Origin: Eledone cirrhosa
Lineage: Eukaryota
Assembly: GCA_964016885.1 (NCBI GenBank)
Contig: OZ024751.1
Coordinates: forward strand, 37,882,001-37,946,000
Length of the DNA: 64,000 nucleotides
Direction: 5' to 3'
Every line of letters begins with the position of its first letter. The first letter of the stretch is position 1. This document shows positions 5,513 to 60,571 of this stretch, one piece after another. The notes under the pieces are model-generated. The model saw only the letters and a list, made by a program, of their open reading frames with translations. It did no database searches and was not told the DNA's origin. Position numbers and translations under genes: made by a program.

Positions 5513-5709
5513 GGAACGAGTATATATATATATATATAGGCTGAGCTCAAGCCGTTTCGACGGCTAATTCTGTCCAGAATTAGGCGTCGAAACGGCTTCA
5601 GCTCAGCCGTCGGGGTCCTACTCGTTCCTATTACCCACTCTACTACCCTAAGTATTGAGTACTTTGGTGCGTTATGGTCCACCTGGTTCCTTACCACATT
5701 TCCTTCGTT
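5513..5709 (+). mobile_element. Family A fold-back element
   Basis: Inverted arm (interrupted by a TA run) folds back at about 5570 into CCAGAATTAGGCGTC-GAAA-CGGCTTCAGCTCAGCCG-TC-GGGGTCC...TTCGTT-(TA)n. Confidence 0.85.
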
Positions 5710-7460: not shown

Positions 7461-7577
7461 GGAACCAGTAAGACCCCGACAGCTGAGCTCAAGCCGTTTC
7501 GACGGCTAATTCTGGACTCAAGTATTGAGTACTTTGGTGCGTTATGGTCCACCTGGTTCCTTACCACATTTCCTTCG

Positions 7578-7579
<2 letters not shown>
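7461..7579 (+). mobile_element. Family A element with inversion-deletion structure
   Basis: 7461-7520 is the inverted HHR half; 7521-7579 is the family 3-prime end. Same architecture as 14-131. Confidence 0.85.
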
Positions 7580-8045: not shown

Positions 8046-8087
8046 TATATATGTGTATATTTTGTATGTATTATATACATATTCTAG

Positions 8088-8307
8088 GGCGGCGGATTGG
8101 CAGTATCGGTAGAGAGTCGGACACCATGATTTGCAGCATAGAGTCACGTCCCTTTATGGTCTGAGTTCAAATCCTGCCGAGGTTAACTTTGCCTTTCATC
8201 CTTACGGTGGGGATAAAATAAAGTACCAGTAACGTACTGGGGTCGATGTAATCGAATTTCCTCTTCCCCCAAATTACTACCCTTGTGCCTATAGTAGAAA
8301 TCATTAT
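8088..8307 (+). mobile_element. tRNA-derived SINE with Meta/MESC-like central domain (long form)
   Basis: A box TGGCAGTATCGG at 8098, B box GAGTTCAAATCC at 8163, core TTTGCCTTTCATCC...GATAAAATAAAGTACCAGT, ATT tail; many copies in the window. Confidence 0.9.
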
Positions 8308-8457
8308 ATACATAATCTATTGTTTTAGTCCACCACTGTCACCATAGCAACATCGTTCCACCATTTACAGGGTCTGTGAGATCCAGATATTTCCAATATA
8401 TTTACTGATAAAGAAATATTTCTTATCCAGGGGAATACACTACACATCCCTTTATCA

Positions 8458-8675
8458 TAATTATATTTACATTAGGTATATGGTCACTGATTTTGATGGA
8501 GGGGAAAATCGATTATATCGACCGCAGTACACGACTAATACTTTATTTCATCGACCCCGAAAGGATGAAAGACAAAGCTGACATCGGGGTGATTTGAATT
8601 CAGAAAGTAGAGGGTGATAACCAAATGCCATGAAGCGTTGTGTTTGGTGCTCTACCGACCATGCTAATCCAATGT
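8458..8675 (-). mobile_element. Same SINE family, diverged copy
   Basis: Reverse-complement core ATCGACCCCGAAAGGATGAAAGACAAAG and B box GATTTGAATTCAG. Confidence 0.8.
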
Positions 8676-9052: not shown

Positions 9053-9657
9053 ATCTATTCTACAATGTATAGCAGTACAGGGCATCTCAAAAGTTACTAT
9101 CTACTCTACACTGTATAGCAGTACAGGGCATCTCAGGAGTTACTATCTACTCTACACTGTATAGCAGTACAGGGCTTCTCAGGAGTTACTATCTACTCTA
9201 CACTGTATAGCAGTACAGGGCTTCTCAGGAGTTACTATCTACTCTACACTGTATAGCAGTACAGGGCATCTCAGGAGTTACTATCTACTCTACACTGTAT
9301 AGCAGTACAGGGCTTCTCAGGAGTTACTATCTACTCTACACTGTATAGCAGTACAGGGCATCTCAGGAGTTACTATCTACTCTACACTGTATAGCAGTAC
9401 AGGGCTTCTCAGGAGTTACTATCTACTCTACACTGTATAGCAGTACAGGGCATCTCAGGAGTTACTATCTACTCTACACTGTATAGCAGTACAGGGCTTC
9501 TCAGGAGTTACTATCTACTCTACACTGTATAGCAGTACAGGGCATCTCAGGAGTTACTATCTACTCTACACTGTATAGCAGTACAGGGCATCTCAGGAGT
9601 TACTATCTACTCTACACTGTATAGCAGTACAGGGCATCTCAAAAGTTACTATCTACT
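9053..9657. repeat. 46-bp minisatellite, about 13 copies
   Basis: Unit GTATAGCAGTACAGGGC(A/T)TCTCAGGAGTTACTATCTACTCTACACT in direct tandem with no spacers. Confidence 0.97.
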
Positions 9658-9860: not shown

Positions 9861-10241
9861 CCCCATTTGCTCACCATACGAAGAGATGGGAAGGGTGAGA
9901 GAAATGGAGGCGATGACAGTGAGAGTTCGACTGACTAATTCTTGTAGCATTCATTTGCCGTTGCTAAAGTTTGTTACTGGTTCGAAATTTCTATATGAAT
10001 CCATTTGATTCTTTTGTATCGTTCTCTACATCTGAAAGTAAAGACACTTTAAGTGGGGACAATAGAATAAATAGGATGTTTTAACTGTTGTATTAGGATT
10101 AAGGGTGTCATTAGGAGTGAGAATGAAATCAATTAATATTGTGTGGGGATTAAAACGTTTAACTATAGGTTTATGAGATTAGATCCGTATCCTAAGTATA
10201 GATTTAGATGGAAACGGCAGCATTATTATGTTTATTGATAG

Positions 10242-10432
10242 TGCGGTGAATTGGCAGTATTGGTGGAGGGCCGGACGCCATGTTTTCCAGCATAGTTACG
10301 TCCCTTTACGGTCTTAGTTCAAATCTCGTCGCGGTTAACTTTGCTTTTCATCCTTACGGGGTCGATAAAATAAAGTACCAGTAATGTACTGGGTAATTGC
10401 TGGCCTTGTGCTAAAAGTAGAAACAATTATTA
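10242..10432 (+). mobile_element. Meta-like SINE (short form)
   Basis: A/B boxes, core and tail GTACTGGGTAATTGCTGGCCTTGTG...AGAAACAATTATT. Confidence 0.88.
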
Positions 10433-11470
10433 TGTTTATTGATGTAAGTAGGGATATCATTTATGGAAGTAGGGATATATAATATTCGAAAATATCTCGT
10501 GGTACATTAAAACAATGATACTGCTATTGTTATACGATAGATTTGTTGAAAGAAATAAAGTTGTATATTTATAAAAATTTTCCATTAACGTAGGTTACAT
10601 CACATCGAGTTTCTGCTTTGATCTTTGAAATAATTGTCTGAAAATTTGTTAACAATTATAAATGTAATTATAATTTGCCTGCAGTGCAACAAATTATCCA
10701 AAGACGATACGTTGCAAAATATGATGTCTCTGTGTAAAAAGATAGTTGTTGCATTCTATTTGTAGATGAGACACAGTCTTCACTTTGAAAATGTATTTTT
10801 GGTCTGATATCAGGTATTTTATGTAAAATAACTGGGGCCCAAATATATCAGCCTCCACAAGGGGATACTTGGAAACTGATCTCTCACCTCTGATCTCGAT
10901 TAGGAGCACGACAAAAGCTAACTCAGGCCTAAATTGAAAGATGTAAGATACATTTCCCATTTAATATAATACACTAATATACACGTTTGTGTGGTGGGGT
11001 GAGAAATTTGAAAACACTGTCATGACAAGGTAAATAATTATAATTATAGTTGTCAAATCAGGTACCTTGTCTCTTGTGACGAAGAAAATGGACTGAAATG
11101 CCGACGGTGAAACGAACCATCCTTTTATTCGTTTGGTTTCGATTTGTCTTGCAGATAATAACTTGGCATGCTTTTGTATTTTTTGCGTCTGCAGTTATCT
11201 TCAGATAAGCTATATGGTTTAGTTATTGTAGTTTTCAGAGTGAGCATGTAGCTCTAAATTGTATATTATATATTTTGAATAAATGCTTGTAGCAGTGAAA
11301 TATTGGGGTCAACTCTTGGATAAGTTCCCCCAGTCGGGCCCCATTATAATGACTGAAACCAGTAATATAATATATTGTGGAGATTACTAGAGATAGATTG
11401 TTAGATATACAGAAACAGATATTTGTAGGGGGGGGGGGATAATTCTGGTTGGTAGATACTAATACATATA

Positions 11471-14996: not shown

Positions 14997-15400
14997 TGAC
15001 GAAACATAAGTCAATTGCATGAACTCATAATCCTTTATTTACTGCTATATATATTTCGATGATAGCCATTGAGTGGCTATGACCTCATCAGGCAGTTAGT
15101 CAGTTCTTAGATATGCCAGCTCTGTGTTTATGGTGTTGATTGTTTCAGAGCCTTGGGACATATGAGCTTGTTAGGAATAATTTAATGTTGTCAGCAGGAA
15201 TAGTCTTAATTCTCATTGGTCAGTTTGTAGATGCTAGTAGGGTTGGTATTTGACCTCAAAGAGGCAGGTGGTGTTGTAAAGTTCAAACCATCAGGCAAGA
15301 TGACAATAGTTCCATATGACTGATTTTCACAAAAAGCATTCCTGGTCAGATATATATTCAATTGGGGTTTATAGTATGAAATAGATACTACAGGTCAATC
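14997..15400 (-). mobile_element. Penelope-like element 3-prime relic (GIY-YIG C-terminus, UTR, HHR, polyA signal)
   Basis: Minus strand encodes ...CENQSYGTIVILPDGLN (P.GLN end motif of PLE endonucleases, 15281-15295), followed by an intact HHR, AATAAA and a TA run. Confidence 0.65.
15041..15096 (-). ncRNA. Type I hammerhead ribozyme, intact core
   Basis: ACTGC-CTGATGA-GGTCATAGCCA CTCAA TGGCTATCATC-GAAA-TATATA-TA/GCAGT: 5-bp stem I, long stem II, palindromic stem III, AUA site. Confidence 0.9.
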
Positions 15401-17581: not shown

Positions 17582-17734
17582 AATCACGAGTTCAATCATG
17601 CCTTACCACAGTTAGTAAGGTACTCAATAATATTAGTAGAATATCAAGTTTAATATAGAAATGGTTTATACGGGACTAGAACTGTTTCATGAAACAATTC
17701 TAGTCCTGTAAAAGCCATTTTTATATTAGATTTG

Positions 17735-17738
<4 letters not shown>
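17582..17738 (-). mobile_element. Family D fold-back element
   Basis: Inverted arms centred on TTTC-AT-GAAA (17689/17690); HHR half GAAA-CAG-TTCTAGTC-C.G-TA; homologous to 46984-47177. Confidence 0.75.
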
Positions 17739-17828: not shown

Positions 17829-17899
17829 TATTTTATTATGCGCATTTCAAAAACAAACATCATCAAGCAATAATATTTGTGTTTTCATCAGATAAAACA
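17829..17899 (-). ncRNA. Type I hammerhead ribozyme, intact core
   Basis: TGTTTTAT-CTGATGA-[36-nt hairpin, 15 of 16 pairs including GU]-GAAA-TGCGCA-TA/ATAAAATA, within a TA-flanked insert at about 17797-17956. Confidence 0.9.
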
Positions 17900-20535: not shown

Positions 20536-20942
20536 GATAGAGAGGGAGTGGGGTGCATATATATATCCGGAAATATCAATATATATATGAGTGTGTGTGT
20601 GTGTGTGTACTTACTGTATCTCTTGAGTCTGAAACCGGCTTCTTAACAGCTGGTGTGAAATGCCGGACGGCCATAAGTTATGCGCTTGACAAAGCAACTA
20701 CGACCTTATATTTACACAAAACAATTTCAATCTTCATAACCAACACAATTCATATCCTTTCTTTTGAAAAAGTATACTTTCGCCGAAATATCGGGATATA
20801 TAAGCCAACTGTGGATACTGTTTTTTTTCTTTTCACTTATATTCTTCCTACATTTCACTTACGTGTTTCTAATTCGTATTTTACCGTCTTTTGTAAAATA
20901 TTCCTAACCACATACGACAATATGGTTTATATAAACATTATA

Positions 20943-21362
20943 TAATAACCGTTTCTGATTTAGGGACAAGGTGAACAATTTTAGTAGAGGGGGATGTCGA
21001 TTAAATCGAGTCCAGTGCATTACTGGTACTTTATTTCATCGACTCCGTAAGGAGGAAAGGCAAAGTTAACCTTGGCGGGATTTGAACACAACGTAAAATG
21101 CTGTAACTTTCTGCTGCAATGCATATTGTCCGACGCTCTACTGATACTGCCAATCCTACCCTTATCGTAATAATAATTGTTTCTACTTTTGGGACAAGGT
21201 CAGCAATTACCCAGTGCATTACTGGTACTTTATTTTATCGACCCCGTAAGGATGAAAGGCAAAGTTAACCTCGACGTGATTTGAACTCAGACCGAAAAGG
21301 GATGTAACTCTTTGCTGCAAAGGATGATGTCTGACACTCTACCGATACTGCCAATCCACCAC
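20943..21362 (-). mobile_element. Two head-to-tail Meta-like SINEs (long form 20943-21163, short form 21169-21362)
   Basis: Two reverse-complement copies of the core and A/B boxes. Confidence 0.88.
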
Positions 21363-21932
21363 AATAATCGGATATAAAGAAAAAAGAACAATGGAATAAA
21401 GAATGAAAATTATAGCTGAGAACAGGGTGGAGTAGGTTGTGAAGGAGATGATGAACATGTAACTTGAAAAAAAACGATAACATTTAACATCGTAAAATTT
21501 TCTCTTATATTTTGTTTATATATATTTCATGTCCGAGAAAAACAACAAAACATTGACTGAATATACTGATAGAGCGTAAATATGAAGTGAGGCAATATTT
21601 CTTCAGCTTCAAAAGATAAGGGCTGGAGCTGTTCTGTAGGCGAAAAGATGAGTGGGTTATAGTAGCTCTTCTGAAACAAAAACGAAGGAGATAGCAAAAA
21701 TCAGTTACTGAAGTGTTCTTGTTGCATGGAGACTTAAAAATAATGCTTTATATAATATTTCTATATTATCCAAGCTTTTATTTTTCTCATCTGCTGAAAA
21801 TAATAGAAAATAATAGAAAGACTAAAAGATAGAATGTTATATTCTTTTATATAATCAAATTTATAATAAATACTTTACTTATTGAAATATTTAATGTGGT
21901 AGTTATACACTAGATTTCTGAATAAATGTATG

Positions 21933-33293: not shown

Positions 33294-33345
33294 TAATAAA
33301 AACAATGCATAAAAACAAAGCCAAGTTCCTTATATTAAAAAATCA

Positions 33346-33477
33346 TCATTTTACGATCGTTTCAAGGATATATATGTGTGTTGGTATGTATATCATATAG
33401 ATCTATGTAAAAATTATTTTACAAACTATCAGAGGAAATATACATACCTTCACATATACATGCTGTCTTCAGAAATA

Positions 33478-35520: not shown

Positions 35521-35730
35521 ACACAACGAAGGTGTGGTAAGATACCAGATGGACCATAACGCACCAGAGTACTCGATACTTAGGGTAGTAGAGTGGGTAA
35601 TAGGAAAGGAATCAGGAACCCGACGTTTCGACAGCTAGATCAGAACAGTTCGGGTCTAGCTGTCGAATAGTTCTGATCTCGCTTTCGAAACGGCCGGAGC
35701 TCAGCCGTCGGAGTCCTGATTCTTTCCCTA
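35521..35730 (-). mobile_element. Family A subfamily fold-back element with rearranged centre
   Basis: Family 3-prime end plus multiply inverted stem II/III segments; TA flanks. Confidence 0.8.
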
Positions 35731-35768: not shown

Positions 35769-35957
35769 AACGAAGGAAATGTGGTAAGGAACCAGGTGGA
35801 CCATAACGCACCAAAGTACTCAATACTTAGGGTAGTAGAGTGGGTAATAGGAACGAGTAGGACCCCGACGGCTGAGCTGAAGCCGTTACGACGGCTAATT
35901 CTGGACAGAATTAGCCGTCGAAAAGGCTGGAGCTCAGCCGCCGGGGTCCTACTCGTT

Positions 35958-35959
<2 letters not shown>
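35769..35959 (-). mobile_element. Family A fold-back element
   Basis: Nearly the reverse complement of 5513-5709 with the same fold-back centre (CTGGACAG). Confidence 0.85.
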
Positions 35960-36002
<43 letters not shown>

Positions 36003-39243: not shown

Positions 39244-39689
39244 TATGAGGGTTTGTTTTATAACGATTTGATTTTAATTAATTACAATTTAGCTAATCTA
39301 TTTTGAAACCTTAATATTGGGAACCAAGAATCTTCTGAGATGGATATGTCTCAAAGGTGCAACCGAATTCGGAATACGGTAATTACATGTAATCTCTTTG
39401 GAATTATAAAATAGAAATTGATAGAGATAGGTTGGAATGCACTGGCGAATATATTTGTGAGAAATTAATACAGAAATGTTGTTGCATGCTTCAGTATACT
39501 TGGGCATTAATGTGAGGTGGAGTTAAGGATGGAGATATGCTCTGATATTTGCTTTCGTTGTGGCCTTTGTAGATGGCGAATCTATTATATTGAGGGATAT
39601 ACCAGTATATATTGATTCTCGTTGTTTTCAATCAAGTCTTTAAATACACTAAATTCAAAAGAAAGATAGGTAGATAGATACATAGATAT

Positions 39690-39808
39690 ATAATTGTTTC
39701 TACATTTGGTACAAGGCCAGCAATTATCCCAGTGTATTGCTGGTACTTTATTTAATCGACTCCGTAAGGATGAAAGGCAAAGTTAACCTCGGCGGGATTT
39801 GAACTCAG
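39690..39808 (-). mobile_element. Meta-like SINE (short form), 5-prime truncated
   Basis: Tail, core and B box; ends at a TA run. Confidence 0.85.
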
Positions 39809-39831
39809 ATATATAGATATATAATTATATA

Positions 39832-40576
39832 TATATAAGTATGTATACGTACATACATATATGTATACAGACGTACAGTAGTATGTATATATATATACAT
39901 ACATGCACACATATATATATGTACGTATGGATTCACCGTATATTTATTATAATGCTCGGTGTGTTTGTAAACAAACATCCCGAATTAAGCCGTACAGTGT
40001 CTAGCAACCATCGTTACTCGTTTGTTCAACACTGACAAAAGAACGCTGTATACTTATATGTATGTACGTATACATACTTATATTTAAGTAACAGCCGTAC
40101 TAAGAGTGAGAAATGAAATTTCGTTTCATTTTTTCCGTTTATCGTCTTCGGTGCGACCGGCCGATTAACTCACTCGATATGCAAATTAGGCTGCTCAGTC
40201 GTTAATATGCATAAGGAAAGTATATACTTTCAGACGTTCAATCATCTGGCAGGAAGGTATACGTTGCTGACGATAGCAAATGAGCTTGAAACTAGTACAG
40301 CGTTCCTTTGTCAGTGTTGAACAAATGAGCAACGATGGTTGCTAGACACTGTACGGCTTAATTCGGGATGTTTGTTTACAAACACACCGAGCATTATAAT
40401 AATTGTTCGGTGTATCCATATGTACATATATATATATGAGTGCATGTATGTATATATATATATACATACTACTGTACGTCTGTATACATATATGTATGTA
40501 CGTATACATACTTATATTTAAGTAACAGCCGTACTAAGAGTGAGAAATGAAATTTCGTTTCATTTTTTTCGGTTTA
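39832..40576 (+). mobile_element. Retrozyme-like / non-autonomous PLE-like element: 1.2 copies of a 434-nt unit plus an inverted arm
   Basis: 40055-40141 is directly repeated at 40489-40576 (offset 434). 39832-40050 is the inverse of 40296-40517. Contains an intact HHR; TA flanks. Confidence 0.85.
40261..40303 (+). ncRNA. Minimal type I hammerhead ribozyme, intact core
   Basis: ACGTTG-CTGACGA-TAGC AAATGA GCTT-GAAA-CTAG-TA/CAGCGT: 6-bp stem I, palindromic ACTAGT stem III, predicted cut after 40297. Confidence 0.9.
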
Positions 40577-40593
40577 TATATATGAGAGAGAGA

Positions 40594-40639
<46 letters not shown>

Positions 40640-40642
40640 CAG

Positions 40643-40702
<60 letters not shown>

Positions 40703-42199: not shown

Positions 42200-42375
42200 A
42201 TAATGATGGTTTCTGATTTATAAACAAGGTCACAAATTTTTTTTTTGGGGGGGGGGGCGATTAAATTGACCCAAGTACGTTACTGGTACTTTATTTTATA
42301 AGCTCCGTAAGAATGAAAGGCAAAGCTAACCTCGGCGGGATTTGAACTTAGAACGTAAAGTGCCATAACTCTATA
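42200..42375 (-). mobile_element. Meta-like SINE (long form), partial
   Basis: Core and B box in reverse complement. Confidence 0.8.
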
Positions 42376-42829
42376 CTACAAAGAATAGTAAATATTAACG
42401 ATTTATTTTATTGTCCAGATAGCCGCATAAAGTTAGGGACTGGACAATAACAATACAATGACGAAAAGCAGCAGATGGGAGAGTCAACAGAAGAAGAGGA
42501 ATTGAGGGCACAATAAATATGATAAATAGCGATAAAAACAAAATATATATATGATAAATGTCAACAAAGAAAGTTCCCAAATATCATGGATGACTTGCTC
42601 ATGTAAATGCAGAGACCAACACGCACCTTTAAAAAGTCCCGATTACTGTACCCTTTGAAGGGCAGTTTAATGGCTCTATCCGGTTGTTTTCTATTGTTTA
42701 CAAAAGTAGAGTGAGAGTAGGTTCATTTCTCTAGATTCTGTTGCTAATGGCTACATTAATGACAGAAAGGCCGCTCAGGTATGTAGTCTCTATATTGCGT
42801 TTAGATGACATCGATATTCTGAAAGTAAA

Positions 42830-43427: not shown

Positions 43428-43570
43428 ACCTTTGAGTTCAAATCTCGCCAAGATCAACTTTGCCTTTCATCCTTCCGTGGTTCATAAAATAAAGTACAAG
43501 GCAATTATTGTGGTTCGATTTAATCAACTTTCCTCCTCCCCCATCGTATTGCTGGACTTGTGTCTAAGAT
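43428..43570 (+). mobile_element. Meta-like SINE, partial
   Basis: GAGTTCAAATC...TTTGCCTTTCATCCTTCC...ATAAAATAAAGTAC. Confidence 0.75.
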
Positions 43571-46983: not shown

Positions 46984-46984
<1 letters not shown>

Positions 46985-47173
46985 GTTATTCCGGGTTGAA
47001 TCGGAGGTAACCACAGTAAGTAAGGTACTCAATACATAGCAGAGTATAAAAGTTTTAATGTAGATGAGATTCTACAGGACTAGAACTGTTTCATTCTTTA
47101 GAAATCATCAGGAATCTGATTCTGATGATTTCTAAAGAATGAAACAGTTCTAGTCCTGTAGAATCTCATCTAC

Positions 47174-47177
<4 letters not shown>
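46984..47177 (-). mobile_element. Family D fold-back element
   Basis: Arms 47056-47116 and 47118-47177 are near-perfect inverses; 3-prime end 46984-47055 carries the TTGAGTACC motif; TA flanks. Confidence 0.88.
47067..47117 (-). ncRNA. Type I hammerhead ribozyme, intact core
   Basis: AGATTC-CTGATGA-TTTC TAAA GAAT-GAAA-CAG TTCTAGTC CTG-TA/GAATCT. Confidence 0.85.
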
Positions 47178-47377: not shown

Positions 47378-47389
47378 TATATATATATA

Positions 47390-47572
47390 GGAACGAGTAG
47401 GACCCCGATGGCTGAGCTCAAGCCGTTTCGACGGCTAATTCTGGACTAAATGATTTAGTCCAGAATTAGCTCAGAATTAGCTCAGCCGTCGGGGTCCTAC
47501 TCGTTCCTCTTACCCACTCTACTACCCTAGTTATGGTTATGGTCCATCTGGTTCCTTACCACATTTCCTTCG

Positions 47573-47574
<2 letters not shown>
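47390..47574 (+). mobile_element. Family A fold-back element with internal deletions
   Basis: Centre CTGGACTAAA-TGA-TTTAGTCCAG; family 3-prime end TTCCTTCGTT. Confidence 0.85.
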
Positions 47575-48278: not shown

Positions 48279-49144
48279 AAGGTGTGTAGAATATTCTGAA
48301 GCTTGTTGTTTAGCCGTTGGAAGTTTAACATTCTAGGTTTCGGCAATCAGTCTTAGCCACACGTTACTGCTGTAGTGGATTATAGTTGTAAAAGCTATCT
48401 GTGGAATATGATATATCATAATGTTTCAAAATTCTGTAAGGTAATTGTCGTTCTATGAAGTGATTAGCTAAGAGGTTTAATATCTCAACCTGTGAAGAAT
48501 AACAAACAGATTGCTCTGTAATACTTGCAAGTAAATATACTAGACATCGAAGACTATCTTCTTTAGAAAATAGGACAAATGCAAATAATCTGTCGGATAA
48601 TATACCTTGGTCTAAATTTAGGTGAAAGGTTAGAATGTATTTCATTATAGACATCTAGGTTAGGGTTTGACCTGCCATTAATCAGTGACGAAGGCAACTT
48701 CACAACAATGGTTTGAATTGTGTATAGAGCTTGCCAAAAAATATTTAGAATCTCTTATACGAGCGTGGGAGAAATTGATCTCATACACTCACACACATAC
48801 ACACACACACATACATACATACACAGACACAGACAGACACAGACAGACACACACAGACACACACAGATACACACACAGACACACACATATATGTGTGTGT
48901 GTGTGTGTGTGGTCGAATGAGGGAGAATGACAAGAATGATGAGTGACAGATAATGAATGAGAGAGACGAAGACAAAAATAAAGCGAGAGTAAGAGAGTGA
49001 GAGAGTGAGAGAGTGGTCAATTGAGGGAGAGAGAAAGAGGGATGAGAATGACAAGACAGATTACGAATGAGAGTGAAAAAATGGAGCGAGTAAAAAGGGT
49101 TAAGGGGCAGATTTTGACAGAAAGAGCAGAAAGAATGAGGGATA

Positions 49145-49523
49145 AATAATTGTTTCTCCTTTTGGCACAAGGCCAGCAATTATCTCAGTGTATTACTGGT
49201 ACTTTATTTTATCGATCCGTTAAGGATGAAAGACAAAGTTAACTTCGGCGGGATTTGAACTCAGACCATAAAGGCCCGTAACTCTTTGCTGCAAAGTATG
49301 GCGTCCGACTCTCTACCGATACAGCCAATTAAATAATTGTTTCTACTTTTGGCACAAGGCCAGCAATTATCCCAGTGTATTACTGGTACTTTATTTCATC
49401 GACCCCGTAAAGATGAAAGGCAAAGTTAACCTTGGCGGGATTTGAACTCAGAACGTTAAGGGACGTAACTCTGCTGTAAAGGGTGACGTCCGACCCTCTA
49501 CCGATACTGCCAATCCACCGCCT
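49145..49523 (-). mobile_element. Two head-to-tail Meta-like SINEs (short form)
   Basis: Two reverse-complement copies, 49145-49330 and 49332-49523. Confidence 0.9.
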
Positions 49524-52262: not shown

Positions 52263-52696
52263 GTTGATGTTTCATTAACGTTGTCTTTGTTGCTGCTTTT
52301 TCTGTTGTTTTCATTGTTTTCATTTTGTTGTTTATGTCAATGTTGTTGTTGTTATTGCTGTAGTTACTGTATTGCCGTTTTTTATATGTGTTGTTTATGT
52401 TAGTGTTTTTCTTGTTGTTTTTAATGTTGTTGTTGTTGTATCGTCTTTGTATACCGCTGCTGCTGCTGCTGCTGTTTGTGCTGCTGCAGTTGTTGTTTTT
52501 CCTGCTGCTGCTAATGCACGTATTGCTGCTGCAGTTGTTTTTCCTGCTGCTGGTATTGCAAGTATTGCTGCTGATATTTTCATTGTATTGCTGCTGCAAT
52601 TGTCATTGTTTCAGCTGATGCTGGTGATGATGATGTCATTATTATTGTCATTTCTATTGATCTTCCTATTATAGGTGCACTTAAAGTCCTTATTAT

Positions 52697-53070
52697 TGCT
52701 GCTGCAGTTGGTGTTGTTGCTGCAGTCGGTGTTGCTGCTGCAGTTGGTGTTGTTGCTGCAGTCGGTGTTGCTGCTGCAGTTGGTGTTGCTGCTGCATTTG
52801 GTGTTGCTGCTGCATTTGGTGTTGCCGCTGTAGTTGGTGTTGCTGCTGCAGTTGGTGTGCTGCTGCAGTTGGTGTTGTTGCTGCAGTCGGTGTTGCTGCT
52901 GCAGTTGGTGTTGCTGCTGCAGTTGGTGTTGCTGCTGCATTTGGTGTTGCTGCTGCAGTTGGTGTGCTGCTGAAGTTGGTGTTGTTACTTCAGTTGTTTT
53001 TATGGCTGCAGTTGTTGTTCCTGCTGCAGTTGATGTGCTGCTGCAGTTGGTGTTGTTGCTGCAGTTGTTA
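52697..53070. repeat. 18-21-bp minisatellite GTTGGTGTTGCTGCTGCA
   Basis: About 15 or more tandem copies. Confidence 0.9.
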
Positions 53071-53195
53071 TTGCTGTAGTAGTAGTAGTAGTGGTGGTGG
53101 TGGTGGTGGTGGTGGTGGTGGTGGTGGTGGTGGTGGTGGTGGTGGTGGTGGCGGTAGTGGTAGTAGTAGTAGTAGTAGTGGTGGCGGTAGTGGTA

Positions 53196-53232
<37 letters not shown>

Positions 53233-53319
53233 CAGAAGTAGCAGTAGTGGTAGTAGTGGTGGTGGTAGTGGTGCTGGTAGTAGTAGCAGTAGCAGTAGTA
53301 GTAGCAGTATAGTAGTAGC

Positions 53320-53454
<135 letters not shown>

Positions 53455-53501
53455 TGTAGTAATAGTAGTAGTGGTAGTAGTAGTAGTAGTAGTAGTAGTA
53501 A

Positions 53502-53532
<31 letters not shown>

Positions 53533-53694
53533 TGTTGTTTTTGTTTTTGTTGTTGTTGCAGTTGCTGTTGTTGTTATTGATTTTGTTTCAATTGTTGTTG
53601 TTGTTGTCGTTGTTATATATGGTGATAATATTGTTGCTGCTGCTGTTGCTGTTGTCGTTATTATCAATGCTGCTGATGTTATTAAGGATGATGC

Positions 53695-54074
53695 TGTTGT
53701 TGTTGTTGCTGTAGTTATTATTTATGTTGTTGTTGTTGTTGCTGCTGTAGTTATTATTTATGTTGTTGTTGTTGTTGTTGTTGCTGTAGTTATTATTTAT
53801 ATTGTTGTTGTTGTTGTTGTTGTTGTTGCTGCTGTAGTTATTATTTATATTGTTGTTGTTGTTGTTGCTGTAGTTATTATTTATATTGTTGTTGTTGTTG
53901 CTGTAGTTATTATTTATATTGTTGTTGTTGTTGCTGTAGTTATTATTTATGTTGTTGTTGTTGTTGTTGTTGTTGCTGTAGTTATTATTTATTTATTTAT
54001 GTTGTTGTTGTTGTTGTTGCTGCAGTTATTATTTATGTTGTTGTTGTTGTTGTTGTTGCTGTAGTTATTATTTA

Positions 54075-54105
<31 letters not shown>

Positions 54106-54215
54106 GCTGTAGTTATTATTTATGTTGTTGTTGTTGTTGTTGCTGTAGTTATTATTTATGTTGTTGTTGTTGTTGTTGTTGCTGTAGTTATTATTTATTT
54201 ATGTTGTTGTTGTTG
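53695..54215. repeat. Minisatellite GCTGTAGTTATTATTTAT-(GTT)n
   Basis: About 13 copies with variable GTT number. Confidence 0.9.
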
Positions 54216-54309
54216 TAGATATTGCTGATGTTGTTCTACTACTATTTACCTCATCTACGTATTTTTCTGTTCTTGTCATTCTTACTGCTGCACCTGCAAC
54301 TACAGAGCT

Positions 54310-54360
54310 TGTTGTCGTTGTTGTTGTTGTTACTGCTGTTGTTGTTGTTGTTGTTACTGA

Positions 54361-54445
<85 letters not shown>

Positions 54446-57400
54446 ATTGTTGTTGTTACTGATGTTGTTGTTGTTGTTGTTACTGCTGTTGTTGTTAGTG
54501 CTGTTGTTGTTAGTGCTGTTGTTGTTACTGCTGTTGTTGTTACTGCTGTTGTTGTTGTTGTTGTTACTGATGTTGTTGTTGTTGTTGTTGTTACTGCTGT
54601 TGTTGTTAGTGCTGTTGTTGTTACTGCTGTTGTTGTTACTGCTGCTGTTGTTGTTGTTGTTGTTGTTGTTACTGCTGTTGTTGTTACTGCTGTTGTTGTT
54701 ACTGCTGTTGTTGTTACTGCTGTTGTTGTTACTGCTGTTGTTGTTGTTGTTACTTCTGTTGCTGTTGTTGTTACTGCTGTTGTTGTTACTGCTGTTGTTG
54801 TTGTTGTTACTTCTGTTGTTGTTGTTGTTGTTACTGTTATTGTTGTTTCTGCTGTTGTTGTTACTGCTGTTGTTGTTACTGCTGTTGTTGTTACTGCTGT
54901 TGTTGTTACTGCTGTTGTTGTTGTTGTTACTGCTGTTATTGTTACTGCTGTTGTTGTTACTGTTGTTGTTGTTACTGCTGTTGTTGTTACTGCTGTTGTT
55001 GTTGTTGTTGTTACTGTTTTTGTTGTTACTGTTGTTGTTGTTACTGCTGTTGTTGCTGTTGTTACTGCTGTTGTTGTTGTTGTTACTGTTGTTGTTGTTA
55101 CTGTTGTTGTTGTTACTGTTGTTGTTGTTACTGTTGTTGTTGTTACTGCTGTTGTTGTTGTTGTTGTTACTGTTGTTGTTGTTACTGTTGTTGTTGTTAC
55201 TGCTGTTGTTGCTGTTGTTACTGCTGTTGTTGTTGTTGTTACTGTTGTTGTTGTTGTTGTTACTGTTGTTGTTGTTACTGTTGTTGTTGTTACTGCTGTT
55301 GTTGTTGTTGTTGTTACTGTTGTTGTTGTTACTGTTGTTGTTGCTGTTGTTACTGCTGTTGTTGTTGTTGTTACTGTTGTTGTTGTTACTGTTGTTGTTG
55401 TTGTTGTTACTGTTGTTGTTGTTACTGTTGTTGTTGTTACTGTTGTTGTTGTGACTGTTGTTGTTGTTACTGCTGTTGTTGTTACTGTTGTTGTTGTTAC
55501 TGCTATTGTTGTTGTTGTTGTTGTTGTTACTGTTGTTGTTGTTGTTACTGTTGTTGTTGTTACTGTTGTTGTTGTTACTGCTGTTGTTGTTACTGCTGTT
55601 GTTGTTACTGCTATTGTTGTTGTTGTTGTTGTTACTGTTGTTGTTGTTACTGTTGTTGTTGTTACTGTTGTTGTTGTTACTGTTGTTGTTGCTGTTGTTA
55701 CTGCTGTTGTTGTTGTTGTTACTGTTGTTGTTGTTACTGTTGTTGTTGTTGTTGTTGTTACTGTTGTTGTTGTTACTGTTGTTGTTGTTACTGTTGTTGT
55801 TGTTACTGTTGTTGTTGTTACTGTTGTTGTTGCTGTTGTTACTGCTGTTGTTGTTGTTGTTACTGTTGTTGTTGTTACTGTTGTTGTTGTTGTTGTTGTT
55901 ACTGCTGTTGTTGTTACTGCTGTTGTTGTTACTGCTGTTGTTGTTACTGCTGTTGTTGTTACTGCTGTTGTTGTTGTTGTTACTTCTGTTGCTGTTGTTG
56001 TTACTGCTGTTGTTGTTACTGCTGTTGTTGTTGTTGTTACTTCTGTTGTTGTTGTTGTTGTTACTGTTATTGTTGTTTCTGCTGTTGTTGTTACTGCTGT
56101 TGTTGTTACTGCTGTTGTTGTTACTGCTGTTGTTGTTACTGCTGTTGTTGTTGTTGTTACTGCTGTTATTGTTACTGCTGTTGTTGTTACTGTTGTTGTT
56201 GTTACTGCTGTTGTTGTTACTGCTGTTGTTGTTGTTGTTGTTACTGTTTTTGTTGTTACTGTTGTTGTTGTTACTGCTGTTGTTGCTGTTGTTACTGCTG
56301 TTGTTGTTGTTGTTACTGTTGTTGTTGTTACTGTTGTTGTTGTTACTGTTGTTGTTGTTACTGTTGTTGTTGTTACTGCTGTTGTTGTTGTTGTTGTTAC
56401 TGTTGTTGTTGTTACTGTTGTTGTTGTTACTGCTGTTGTTGCTGTTGTTACTGCTGTTGTTGTTGTTGTTACTGTTGTTGTTGTTGTTGTTACTGTTGTT
56501 GTTGTTACTGTTGTTGTTGTTACTGCTGTTGTTGTTGTTGTTGTTACTGTTGTTGTTGTTACTGTTGTTGTTGCTGTTGTTACTGCTGTTGTTGTTGTTG
56601 TTACTGTTGTTGTTGTTACTGTTGTTGTTGTTGTTGTTACTGTTGTTGTTGTTACTGTTGTTGTTGTTACTGTTGTTGTTGTTACTGTTGTTGTTGTTAC
56701 TGCTGTTGTTGTTACTGTTGTTGTTGTTACTGCTATTGTTGTTGTTGTTGTTGTTGTTACTGTTGTTGTTGTTGTTACTGTTGTTGTTGTTACTGTTGTT
56801 GTTGTTACTGCTGTTGTTGTTACTGCTGTTGTTGTTACTGCTATTGTTGTTGTTGTTGTTGTTACTGTTGTTGTTGTTACTGTTGTTGTTGTTACTGTTG
56901 TTGTTGTTACTGTTGTTGTTGCTGTTGTTACTGCTGTTGTTGTTGTTGTTACTGTTGTTGTTGTTACTGTTGTTGTTGTTGTTGTTACTGTTGTTGTTGT
57001 TACTGTTGTTGTTGTTACTGTTGTTGTTGTTACTGTTGTTGTTGTTATTGCTGTTGTTGTTACTGCTGTTGTTGTTACTGCTATTGTTGTTGTTGTTGTT
57101 GTTACTGTTGTTGTTGTTACTGTTGTTGTTGTTACTGTTGTTGTTGTTACTGCTGTTGTTGTTACTGCTGTTGTTGTTACTGCTATTGTTGTTGTTGTTG
57201 TTGTTACTGTTGTTGTTGTTACTGTTGTTGTTGTTACTGTTGTTGTTGTTACTGTTGTTGTTGTTACTGCTGTTGTTGTTACTGCTGTTGTTGTTACTGC
57301 TATTGTTGTTGTTACTGTTGTTGTTGCTGTTGTTGTTGTTGTTACTGCTGTTGTTGTTGTTGTTGTTGTTACTGTTGTTGTTGTTACTGTTGTTGTTGTT

Positions 57401-57925
57401 ACTGCTATTGTTGTTGTTGTTGTTGTTACTGTTGTTGTTGTTACTGTTGTTGTTGTTACTGTTGTTGTTGTTACTGTTGTTGTTGTTACTGTTGTTGTTG
57501 TTACTGCTGTTGTTGTTGTTGTTACTGTTGTTGTTACTGTTGTTGTTGTTACTGCTGTTGTTGTTGTTGTTGTTACTGTTGTTGTTGTTGTTGTTACTGC
57601 TATTGTTGCTGTTGTTACTGTTGTTGTTGTTACTGCTATTGTTGTTGTTGTTACTGCTATTGTTGTTGTTGTTACTGTTGTTGTTGTTACTGCTATTGTT
57701 GTTGTTGTTACTGCTATTGTTGTTGTTGTTACTGTTGTTGTTGTTACTGCTATTGTTGTTGTTGTTACTGTTGTTGTTGTTGTTGTTACTGTTGTTGTTG
57801 TTGCTGTTGTTGTTGTTACTGCTATTGTTGTTGTTGTTACTGCTGTTGTTGTTGTTGTTACTGCTGTTATTGTTGTTATTGATGTTGTTGTTGTTACTGA
57901 TGTTGTTGTTGTTGTTACTGCTATT
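54310..57925. repeat. (GTT)n array punctuated by ACT/GCT/ATT, with a 1230-bp higher-order duplication
   Basis: Rare markers recur at offset 1230: 54751/55981, 54841/56071, 55011/56241. Confidence 0.92.
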
Positions 57926-58679
57926 CTTCTATGTATTGCTATAGATACTTCTTTTGTTGCTGTTATTGTTGTTAATGATGCAGCTGCTAATATTGCTGCT
58001 GGTATTTCTGATGTAGTTGCTGCTGCTGCTGCTGCTACTACTGCTGCTGCTACTGCTGTTTCAGTGTGTGGTGGCGGTGGTGGCGGCGGTGGCGGCGGCG
58101 GCCGTGGTGTTTCAATTAACTCTGCTGCTTTTGATACTGGTGATGATGATGCTGGAGGTGGTGGTGGTGGTGGTGGTGGTGGTGGTGGTGGTGGTGGTGG
58201 TGGTGGTGGGTGATCGTTATGATGCCGTTGATTACAAGGATGATGATGATGATGAATGTGATGTTGAGAAGGAAGAGGGGGGAGAAGGATAATGACGATA
58301 AAGATGATACAATGATGATGATGATCATCGTGAAGATGAGGACGATGACGAAAAAGATGATATAAATGATATTTATGATGATGATGATGACATGGACGAT
58401 AATGATGACTGTTAGGAGGGGGTGGGGGATCTGGACTGTGACGTTGATGGTGATGGTAGATGATGATGACGATAATGATAACGATGGTGATGATGATGAC
58501 GATAGTGATGATGAGGAGGATAGTGATAATGATGACGATGGTAATGACGATGGTGATGATGATGGTGATGATGATGACGATGGTGATGACGATGATAATA
58601 ATGATGATGGTGTTGAGGATAATAATGACTATGACGATGATGAAGATGACGAAGACGATAATCAGGATGAGGAGGAGGT

Positions 58680-58795
58680 GGATGAGTAGGAGGAAGAAGA
58701 GTAGGAGGTGGGTGAGTAGGAGGTGGAAGAGTAGAAGGTGGATGAGTAGGAGGTGGAAGAGTAGGAGGTGGATGAGTAGGAGGAAGAAGAGTACA
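58680..58795. repeat. 15-bp purine-rich tandem repeat GAGTAGGAGGTGGA(A/T)
   Basis: About 7 copies. Confidence 0.85.
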
Positions 58796-59327
58796 AGAAG
58801 AATGATGATGCTTTAAAGAAATACTTAAGTAAAGTACTTGATGAAAAAGAAAAAGAGTGTGTGACATATTCCAGCATTGTGATGGCACACAAGAATACCA
58901 AGTTGTAGAATAAATTAATTCCATTTATAATAGTTTATTTTATTCCCCATTCTTTACTTTAATTTTATTTTATTTTATTTTATTTTATTTTATTTTATTT
59001 TATTTTATTTACAATTATTTTCTAATTGAATTTTTCAACTTTTCTTTAACAGCTTTTGTGTTTGTCTTTTGATTTTTAGTATTTTGTTTATTATTTTAGT
59101 TTGTTTTTTGTGCTTGTTATTTTTTTAATTTCCTTGGTTTAATTAAGTTCGGCAACCATGACACAGTTGCCTAGACTCATGCGATGACGTGTTTTTAGTT
59201 ATTTTCTATTGTTATTTTGTATTATCGTTTCATTTTATTTATTTCTTATTTTTGCCTTTTTTGGAGAGGGGGGGGGGGCTATTTCTGATATCCTTATATT
59301 CTATAACGGGCCGTATATTCTGTTAGA

Positions 59328-59980: not shown

Positions 59981-60014
<34 letters not shown>

Positions 60015-60023
<9 letters not shown>

Positions 60024-60571
60024 TAAAAAAATAATGAATAAAACAATGAAACAGTTCCTTATATTAAACAAAAAAAGTTCATTATTTAACGATCGTTTCT
60101 GGGATATATATGTGTTAGAATTGGCATGTATATTTAACAGATCTATGTACAAAATTATACAAAATTATACAAACTATCAAAATTAAATATTCATAACAAC
60201 TCATATATATGCCGTCTTCAGAAATAATTATTTCTGAAGACGGCATATATATGAGTTGTTATGTATATTTAATTTTGATAGTTTGTATAATTTTGTATAA
60301 TTTTGTACATAGATCTGTTAAATATACATGCCAATTCTAACACATATATATCCCAGAAACGATCGTTAAATAATGAACTTTTTTTGTTTAATATAAGGAA
60401 CTGTTTCATTGTTTTATTCATTATTTTTTAAATATTTTATCTTGACTCTGTATTCCGTTTGTCTTTCACCGAAAGTGATTTTTCATTGCATCTCTTCTTT
60501 CCATGATATCCGGATTACATTGAGTTCTTCATACGGATTGAACACTACCGTGAACTCTTGGTAGATTTATC

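Follow-up and report, generated by a model that had tools for sequence, protein, structure and literature searches.

At positions 39830-40577 of the stretch of octopus DNA analysed here, a 434-nt unit with a hammerhead ribozyme has been copied more than once around in one direction and is joined head to head with an inverted, shortened copy of itself. The locus thus raises the question of what enzyme placed it there and what kind of RNA, circular or linear, whole or self-cleaved, served as its template. The original prediction saw in this arrangement the signature of a circular or multimeric RNA, with one cDNA running off the 5' end of a self-cleaved molecule. Our preferred reading, to which we give a probability of about 70%, is that of a somewhat aged insertion of an abundant non-coding hammerhead repeat, of the non-LTR retrozyme type, made in a TA-rich target by a Penelope-like RT-endonuclease acting in trans.

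Layout of the insertion

The window, that is, the whole 64-kb stretch that was analysed, is made up of microsatellite-rich non-coding DNA of animal type. The parts of the insertion, its flanks and the two dispersed families mentioned below are the following.

39685-39829, plus strand: left flank, a common dispersed repeat truncated at its end (to 39809), followed by a TA run
39830-40050, minus strand: inverted unit copy truncated at its 5' end, spanning unit places 40296-40520, tail-less, its 3' end at the left flank
40046-40050, no strand: head-to-head junction with 5-nt microhomology, from the comparison of arm and forward copy
40046-40142, plus strand: upstream partial unit (98-bp direct repeat), comprising the last 41 nt of the TA-rich segment and the tail sequence
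40046-40577, plus strand: forward part, 1.23 units of a 434-nt non-coding unit, from self-comparison
40236-40322, plus strand: helix I in its extended form, interrupted by internal loops and surrounding the ribozyme, from the MFE fold
40261-40303, plus strand: type I hammerhead from a descriptor scan, with 6-bp helix I, complete core and predicted cut at 40297/40298
40412-40520, plus strand: TA-rich degenerate segment inside the unit, carried by both arms
40521-40577, plus strand: 57-nt tail, at the right end only, with a hairpin fold (z -2.79, 2 of 200 shuffles)
40578-40700, plus strand: right flank, TA, then a (GA)n microsatellite
15-306, 5539-5708, 7461-7578, 35525-35727, 35770-35962, 47387-47574: third palindromic family
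8085-8604, 10239-10433, 20939-21366, 39685-39809, 42200-42387, 43433-43543, 49141-49522: common dispersed SINE-like repeat

In self-comparison, the inverted arm is the reverse complement of 40296-40520 (93.8% over 225 columns, E 8e-95), and the two differ by 10 substitutions and two 2-nt gaps. The direct repeats, 40046-40142 and 40480-40577, align over 98 columns (96.9%, 3 changes) at an offset of 434. The forward part had been described as 1.2 units at 40055-40576 with a terminal direct repeat of 87 bp; the repeat is real and its offset stands, but it measures 98 bp, and self-comparison sets the bounds of the forward part at 40046-40577, giving 532 nt or 1.23 units with a GC content of 36%. 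The two 3' ends point outward into TA runs, and the 57 nt at the right end (40521-40577) are missing from the left one. Arm and forward copy carry identical letters at 10 of 12 family-variable places, the exceptions being 40326, a likely CpG change, and 40403, which is private to the forward copy. Self-comparison revealed no further copy of the unit within the 64-kb window, and no target-site duplication can be defined between the TA runs on either side of the insertion.

Five bases, 40046-40050, match arm and forward copy alike and constitute a microhomology of 5 nt. Because they fit both sources, the end of the arm is ambiguous over unit places 40296-40301. That the arm ends within 2 nt of the predicted cut is hence true, but the end may lie anywhere in this interval: the microhomology allows for the exact cleavage site, so that the earlier discrepancy of 2 nt vanishes, and it widens the target to six places.

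The absence of credible coding capacity is borne out. The longest ATG frames of the unit, including those that run round the unit junction, have 37 codons on the plus strand and 55 on the minus strand, and no ORF begins near the ribozyme in this copy. Among the 91 complex frames of at least 55 aa in the window, no match to the RT or GIY-YIG families of Pfam was found, and neither these frames nor the insertion contain the combined RT and GIY-YIG ORF of an autonomous Penelope-like element; a weak Pfam match to PF13225 (E 0.003) fell below the cut-off and was disregarded. The lack of a partner Penelope ORF in the window counts against mobilisation in trans.

The layout itself speaks for it. Partial tandems with an adjacent inverted truncated copy and a one-sided tail of 30-40 bp are typical of Penelope-like insertions (PMC8557442, PMC3846280), and the present one agrees with the published arrangement in its partial tandem, its inverted 5'-truncated copy, its one-sided tail and its microsatellite target. 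With endonuclease-bearing Penelope-like elements it shares, besides the tandem, the head-to-head inverted copy and the tail, an AT-rich or microsatellite target (here TA runs to the left and right), a 5' junction with microhomology and a hammerhead near the 3' end (PMC8557442, PMC3846280, PMC11167929). It departs from them in having no ORF, in a tail of 57 nt that exceeds the published 30-40, and in outer ends whose distances downstream of the ribozyme cut are 223 and 280 nt. The match in layout supports the proposal that a non-coding hammerhead unit was mobilised by a Penelope-like RT. The non-autonomous Chlamys elements, such as MRC1, are likewise non-coding Penelope derivatives with pLTRs and head-to-tail copies, but they are green algal and belong to a clade without canonical hammerheads (PMC8557442).

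Several other elements populate the window, in which 10 local inverted pairs were found, 7 of them other short palindromes. The descriptor gives four hits in the window and none in 30 shuffles of it. A second hammerhead family, at 46984-47177, has a minus-strand core at 47111, a U-U base of helix II and a longer helix III; its segment 47056-47177 is a 122-nt palindrome between TA runs with a tail of about 72 nt. A diverged relative of the 47056 element (80.7%) lies at 17605-17737, with its palindrome centred in the ribozyme at GAAA. Two hammerhead-like motifs with a long helix II and palindromic helix III loops, at 17837-17891 and 15046-15091, both on the minus strand, resemble the minimal ribozymes of pLTRs. 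A third family consists of short palindromic insertions with a one-sided extension, set in TA runs and present in at least 6 copies in the 64 kb; a short word, TATTGAGTAC, occurs both in its extension and in the tail of the 47056 family and may mark a common RT start signal. A long near-perfect palindrome at 60011-60444, which adjoins a TA run and in which 60077-60244 and 60211-60378 are 99.4% identical over 168 nt, has a relative at 33344-33477. The SINE-like repeat that flanks the insertion, and which presumably resembles octopod repeats, occurs as a tandem of two at 49143-49514 (period about 187 nt), and its copy left of the insertion stops at 39809. Positions 9053-9657 hold a tandem array with a period of 92 nt (95-98% identical), and 52600-58800 a very long trinucleotide-derived repeat, probably a satellite, with Thr/Val-rich open frames of more than 1,000 codons.

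The ribozyme and its family

The hammerhead shows the complete type I core (CUGANGA / GAAA / UH, with helix I open), with CUGACGA at 40267-40273, GAAA at 40288-40291 and UA at 40296-40297. The call rests on our own descriptor and on folding, since Rfam gives no hammerhead match either at the gathering threshold or at E values up to 10; low-scoring Rfam matches to miRNAs, far below gathering scores, fell on TA-rich segments and were set aside. Of 2000 dinucleotide shuffles made from the 532-nt forward part, 1 matched the descriptor. Folded in isolation, the 43-nt motif does no better than shuffles; within the extended helix I, the pairs of 40256-40306 and 40247-40313 have probabilities of 0.86-1.0. 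Helix III consists of 1 bp with a palindromic tetraloop as its cap, and the base of helix II is a U-U at 40274/40287, leaving 10.1-11.1 unpaired. In shape the ribozyme resembles those of salamander retrozymes: helix III is as in HHR_Amex1 of the axolotl and the U-U base of helix II as in HHR_Amex2, and this U-U variant is known to be active in the axolotl (PMC7229834). Salamander retrozyme ribozymes are also reported to cut poorly as monomers and well as dimers (PMC7229834).

Part of the stretch is present in 16 of the 20 sequencing runs listed for it, four of which (X1, X4, X9 and X18) were compared with the unit; X1 and X18 bear the label of the best-matching species and X4 that of another organism, none of the runs listed as carrying the stretch is identified as RNA, and X9, whose kind is not recorded, has no bearing on expression. 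The comparison covers about 270 nt, 40144-40411; the segment 40412-40577, the tandem junction, both 3' ends and joints of the 40298-to-40480 type lie beyond that part, and the 434-nt period is known from this copy alone, other copies having been compared over 40144-40411. Matches were obtained in 6,967 X1 contigs and in 35,195 of the 12,467,656 X18 reads, numbers that are not a measure of copy number, and only 475 of those 35,195 reads are at least 99% like this copy. The family is very abundant and diverse, with the many genomic copies expected of a non-LTR retrozyme, and the supposition that the unit is not single-copy is upheld by these thousands of contigs and reads. In X4, the same variant letters recur in 34 contigs, and the matches in this run may stem from a related species or from carried DNA.

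Five places, 40156, 40199, 40278, 40282 and 40403, distinguish this copy from nearly all reads; they amount to about 2% of the compared part and agree with the 10 substitutions between the arms, a sign that the copy aged where it stands. Of these five, two fall in helix or loop II: 40278 and 40282 differ from about 99% of family reads, and with them the fourth pair of helix II is lost and loop II is altered. No variant of the U-U at 40274/40287 appears among the family positions listed in reads, and the U-U is probably a family trait. The ribozyme of this copy, originally called intact, is so in its core, but not in helix II, given the U-U base and the changes private to it at 40278 and 40282. 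The 37 variable places listed (15 more lie outside that list) include none of the 12 conserved core places, a result that, with a chance of about 0.17 as calculated by hand, supports the core weakly, and the free N7 varies. At the helix I pair 40264/40300, change rates match in X18 (94/93% and 45/47%) and X9 (85/86%) and are unequal in X1 (23/52%) and X4 (40/78%), all of these being unphased rates.

The tail sequence stands before 40144 in 2,228 X18 reads and 103 X1 contigs, and the tail-to-body join is therefore general, not private to this copy. X18 further contains a diverged subfamily at unit places 40210-40325 that shares the ribozyme region and carries several linked-looking changes in the extended helix I; it parts from the reference near 40210 and, in 11,070 reads, at 40325, and could be a sister family or the end of an autonomous partner. 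An octamer-like motif (40179-40186) and a TATA-like palindrome (40216-40231) were considered as an internal promoter, for which we make no claim; the palindrome is altered or partly deleted in subfamilies. A scan of metagenome contigs, viral contigs and prokaryote genomes with the ribozyme pattern returned 0 loci.

Taken as a unit, the sequence is like animal non-LTR retrozymes in being a non-coding, low-GC stretch of a few hundred nt (434 nt, GC 0.36) at high copy number, with one canonical type I hammerhead per unit and a stable predicted circular fold (PMC7229834; 10.64898/2026.07.22.740005). The fold of the circular unit has a z of -7.0, to which the TA-rich segment contributes in part, and 40144-40411 alone has a z of -3.3; the ribozyme remains foldable inside the predicted circle. 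Having only one ribozyme, the locus is unable to release a 434-nt monomer or circle, and circles probably do not originate from this copy. If the entire locus were transcribed by read-through, the inverted arm is predicted to pair with the 3' strand of the ribozyme, with a helix I probability of 0.0. With its 1.23 units, inverted arm and single ribozyme, the locus corresponds to a 'monomer', not to an active dimer, under the definition of a 2026 preprint that argues for animal retrozymes being non-autonomous Penelope derivatives (10.64898/2026.07.22.740005).

The template and its ends

Reasoning from the Penelope mechanism, we infer mobilisation in trans, two primed cDNAs and their joining through microhomology. 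Nicks on both strands of the target would prime the two cDNAs, two internal start sites, one at 40577 and the other 57 nt away at about 40520, would leave the one-sided tail, and the truncated 5' ends would join head to head through the 5 nt that they share. An anole Penelope protein, studied in vitro, cuts AT-rich DNA on both strands and extends each of them, and its reverse transcription starts at two internal sites whose spacing equals the tail (PMC11167929). To make the 532 nt of the forward cDNA, copying would have crossed a ribozyme site that was uncut or re-joined, so the template must have been longer than one unit; to this extent, the expectation that it passed an intact or ligated junction on a tandem or, loosely, circular template is upheld. 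The locus requires nothing beyond such a template, and a circle is a possible one. The simplest candidate would be a linear RNA transcribed from a tandem donor at another genomic location, left uncut at that site by a ribozyme presumably weakened by its 1-bp helix III and the U-U in helix II. We incline slightly towards a linear tandem RNA as the template, tentatively in uncleaved form; cleavage at its 5' end is the less probable variant, and templates of any other kind are rather improbable.

A circle combined with a linear monomer is possible but doubtful. The forward cDNA would then have made 1.23 turns of a ligated 434-nt circle, and the inverted one would have run off the 5' end of a self-cleaved monomer, the two templates being used on a dimeric enzyme; the Penelope protein is indeed predicted to be a dimer (PMC11167929). 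The idea that circles serve as templates for more-than-unit copies has been in print since 2014 (PMC4209133, PMC7229834). Circular RNAs have been demonstrated for coral, mussel and axolotl retrozymes, and a circle remains plausible because circles are the main RNA form of retrozymes in the mussel (PMC7229834). The unit size, the low GC and the stable circular fold all fit, as does a ribozyme that can fold within the circle, a property published for animal retrozymes (PMC7229834). The end of the arm brackets the cleavage site, moreover, which would be a 6-in-430 coincidence if ends were uniform, and cleavage may have had some role in setting it. Nonetheless, no feature of the locus requires a circle, and a ligated circle does not explain why one cDNA should end at a place that the other went through, unless a second molecule, a linear one, took part. 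The view of the layout as the signature of a circle is not supported, partial tandem, inverted copy and tail being ordinary for Penelope-like insertions.

Other copies of the family allow the inner ends to be set against the cleavage site. The joints listed include 12 opposite-strand ones, and thus 24 ends, a count that omits 3 same-strand rows and 5 further rows; the direction of the join is visible only in these last five, where the letters between the ends fit a head-to-head join. No end lies at 40298, one of the 24 listed lies in 40296-40301 (0.54 expected, P 0.42) and two in 40296-40306 (1.0 expected). For the 9 partner ends, which are the least biased by library cut sites, the corresponding counts are one (0.20 expected, P 0.19) and two (0.37 expected, P 0.051, for an interval chosen after seeing the data), and 5 of the 9 partner arms run upstream past the cleavage site. 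At the upper 95% bound, the interval 40296-40301 would take 21% of all 24 ends and 48% of the 9 partner ends, and a minority hotspot may exist there. No place in 40296-40301 appears among the 3 pile-ups and the 22 loose-end rows listed of 409, the weakest X18 loose-end row listed having 813 reads against a depth near 23,000, and the summed depth of X1 is about equal across the site (1.65-1.87 million at 40174-40233 versus 1.77-1.82 million at 40294-40323). The three pile-ups, which lie at 40184, 40187 and 40363, fall on AATT sites, were read as library cut sites and were rejected as biological ends; 40147-40175, where 9 of the 12 joints have one of their ends, was rejected as a natural 5' end, AATT library cut sites probably explaining the clustering. 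In the palindromes at 47056-47177 and 17642-17737, both arms cross the predicted cut.

With a single end of 24 in 40296-40301 and the others scattered, the reading of the arm end as the signature of a cDNA that ran off a self-cleaved RNA is not supported. The low count at the site, the partner arms that extend upstream of it, its absence from the pile-ups and loose ends listed and an X1 depth as high upstream as downstream all weigh against the combination of circle and monomer. So do the in vitro results, in which uncleaved RNA is the dominant template, the available text of the study recording no RNA ends at the cut site, and ribozyme mutants insert normally, making cleavage dispensable (PMC11167929).

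A special case of the preferred reading, and an unlikely one, derives both inner ends from one molecule. A linear tandem RNA of about 714 nt (1.65 units) would have begun at the upstream cut, kept its second ribozyme uncut and served two primings, one in the second unit at 40577 and one in the first at 40086, the equivalent of 40520; the second cDNA would have run off the cleaved 5' end and the first would have stopped 41 nt past the second priming site. Twin priming is known from L1. The forward end at 40046 does lie only 41 nt beyond 40086, the segment 40046-40086 matches the outer end of the arm, and arm and forward copy agree at 10 of the 12 variable places. We rate it low because its two coincidences (about 6/430 and 82/434) were noticed after the fact and because the short palindromes of the window do not fit, the arms of 47056-47177 and 17642-17737 overlapping fully in a way that a twice-primed linear RNA leaves unexplained. 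Other copies, moreover, show no pile-up of ends at 40298 among the rows listed, and the direct pLTR is copied whole in rotifer Penelope copies (PMC3846280).

It is rather improbable that the 434-nt period is private to this copy or to a small lineage, the insertion being an internally deleted Penelope-like end and the family the pLTR of a longer element whose ORF was lost in or near 40412-40520, or which captured target microsatellite. The comparison of other copies over 40144-40411, without 40412-40577, is compatible with this, numerous reads depart from the reference at 40325, 40210 and 40256, and 61% of X18 reads continue unlike the stretch, so that related forms with other flanks exist. 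The ribozyme, however, is shaped like a canonical retrozyme one, with a tetraloop helix III, a short helix II and an extended helix I, whereas pLTRs typically carry a minimal ribozyme with a long helix II (PMC4209133); the loose consensus at 40325 is a diverged version of the same sequence, and the generality of the tail-to-body join and the lack of an ORF near the ribozyme of this copy also argue against it. An assembly artefact, or a local duplication and inversion at the DNA level, is very improbable: the region is microsatellite-rich and complex Penelope insertions trouble assemblies (PMC8557442), but 10 substitutions and 2 gaps separate the arms and 3 changes the direct repeats, raw reads contain opposite-strand joints from the same family, and the ends match a known transposition layout.

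Retrozymes and Penelope-like integration

As judged from its sequence, the locus adds an abundant retrozyme-type family, of the non-LTR retrozyme or non-autonomous Penelope kind. We found no literature on this family, on truncation ends at hammerhead cuts or on Penelope twin priming in a search that covered subscription journals thinly, and the family may already have been named. The published link between retrozymes and Penelope-like elements draws on shared ribozymes, co-occurrence and pLTR similarity, and makes no use of insertion anatomy in the accounts available; the main texts of PMC7229834 and 10.64898/2026.07.22.740005 describe neither inverted arms nor tails of retrozymes. Here, one locus shows a retrozyme-type unit together with Penelope-like marks of integration, namely the inverted arm, the tail and the TA target.

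It is conceivable, if unlikely, that ribozyme cleavage sets the 5' end of some germ-line templates of the Penelope RT, and that one linear tandem RNA left its fossil in this insertion; on the same unlikely premise, that RNA would have been cut at its first ribozyme, left uncut at its second and primed once per unit. Shaping of the template by the ribozyme is absent from the findings of the one in vitro study, as far as its available text goes (PMC11167929), and a genome-wide pile-up of ends at the cleavage site would be in vivo evidence for it. If the idea were true, the thousands of 5' ends in this family would report genome-wide on the type of template, be it a circle, a cut linear RNA or an uncut one, and would hence speak to a question that in vitro work has left open.
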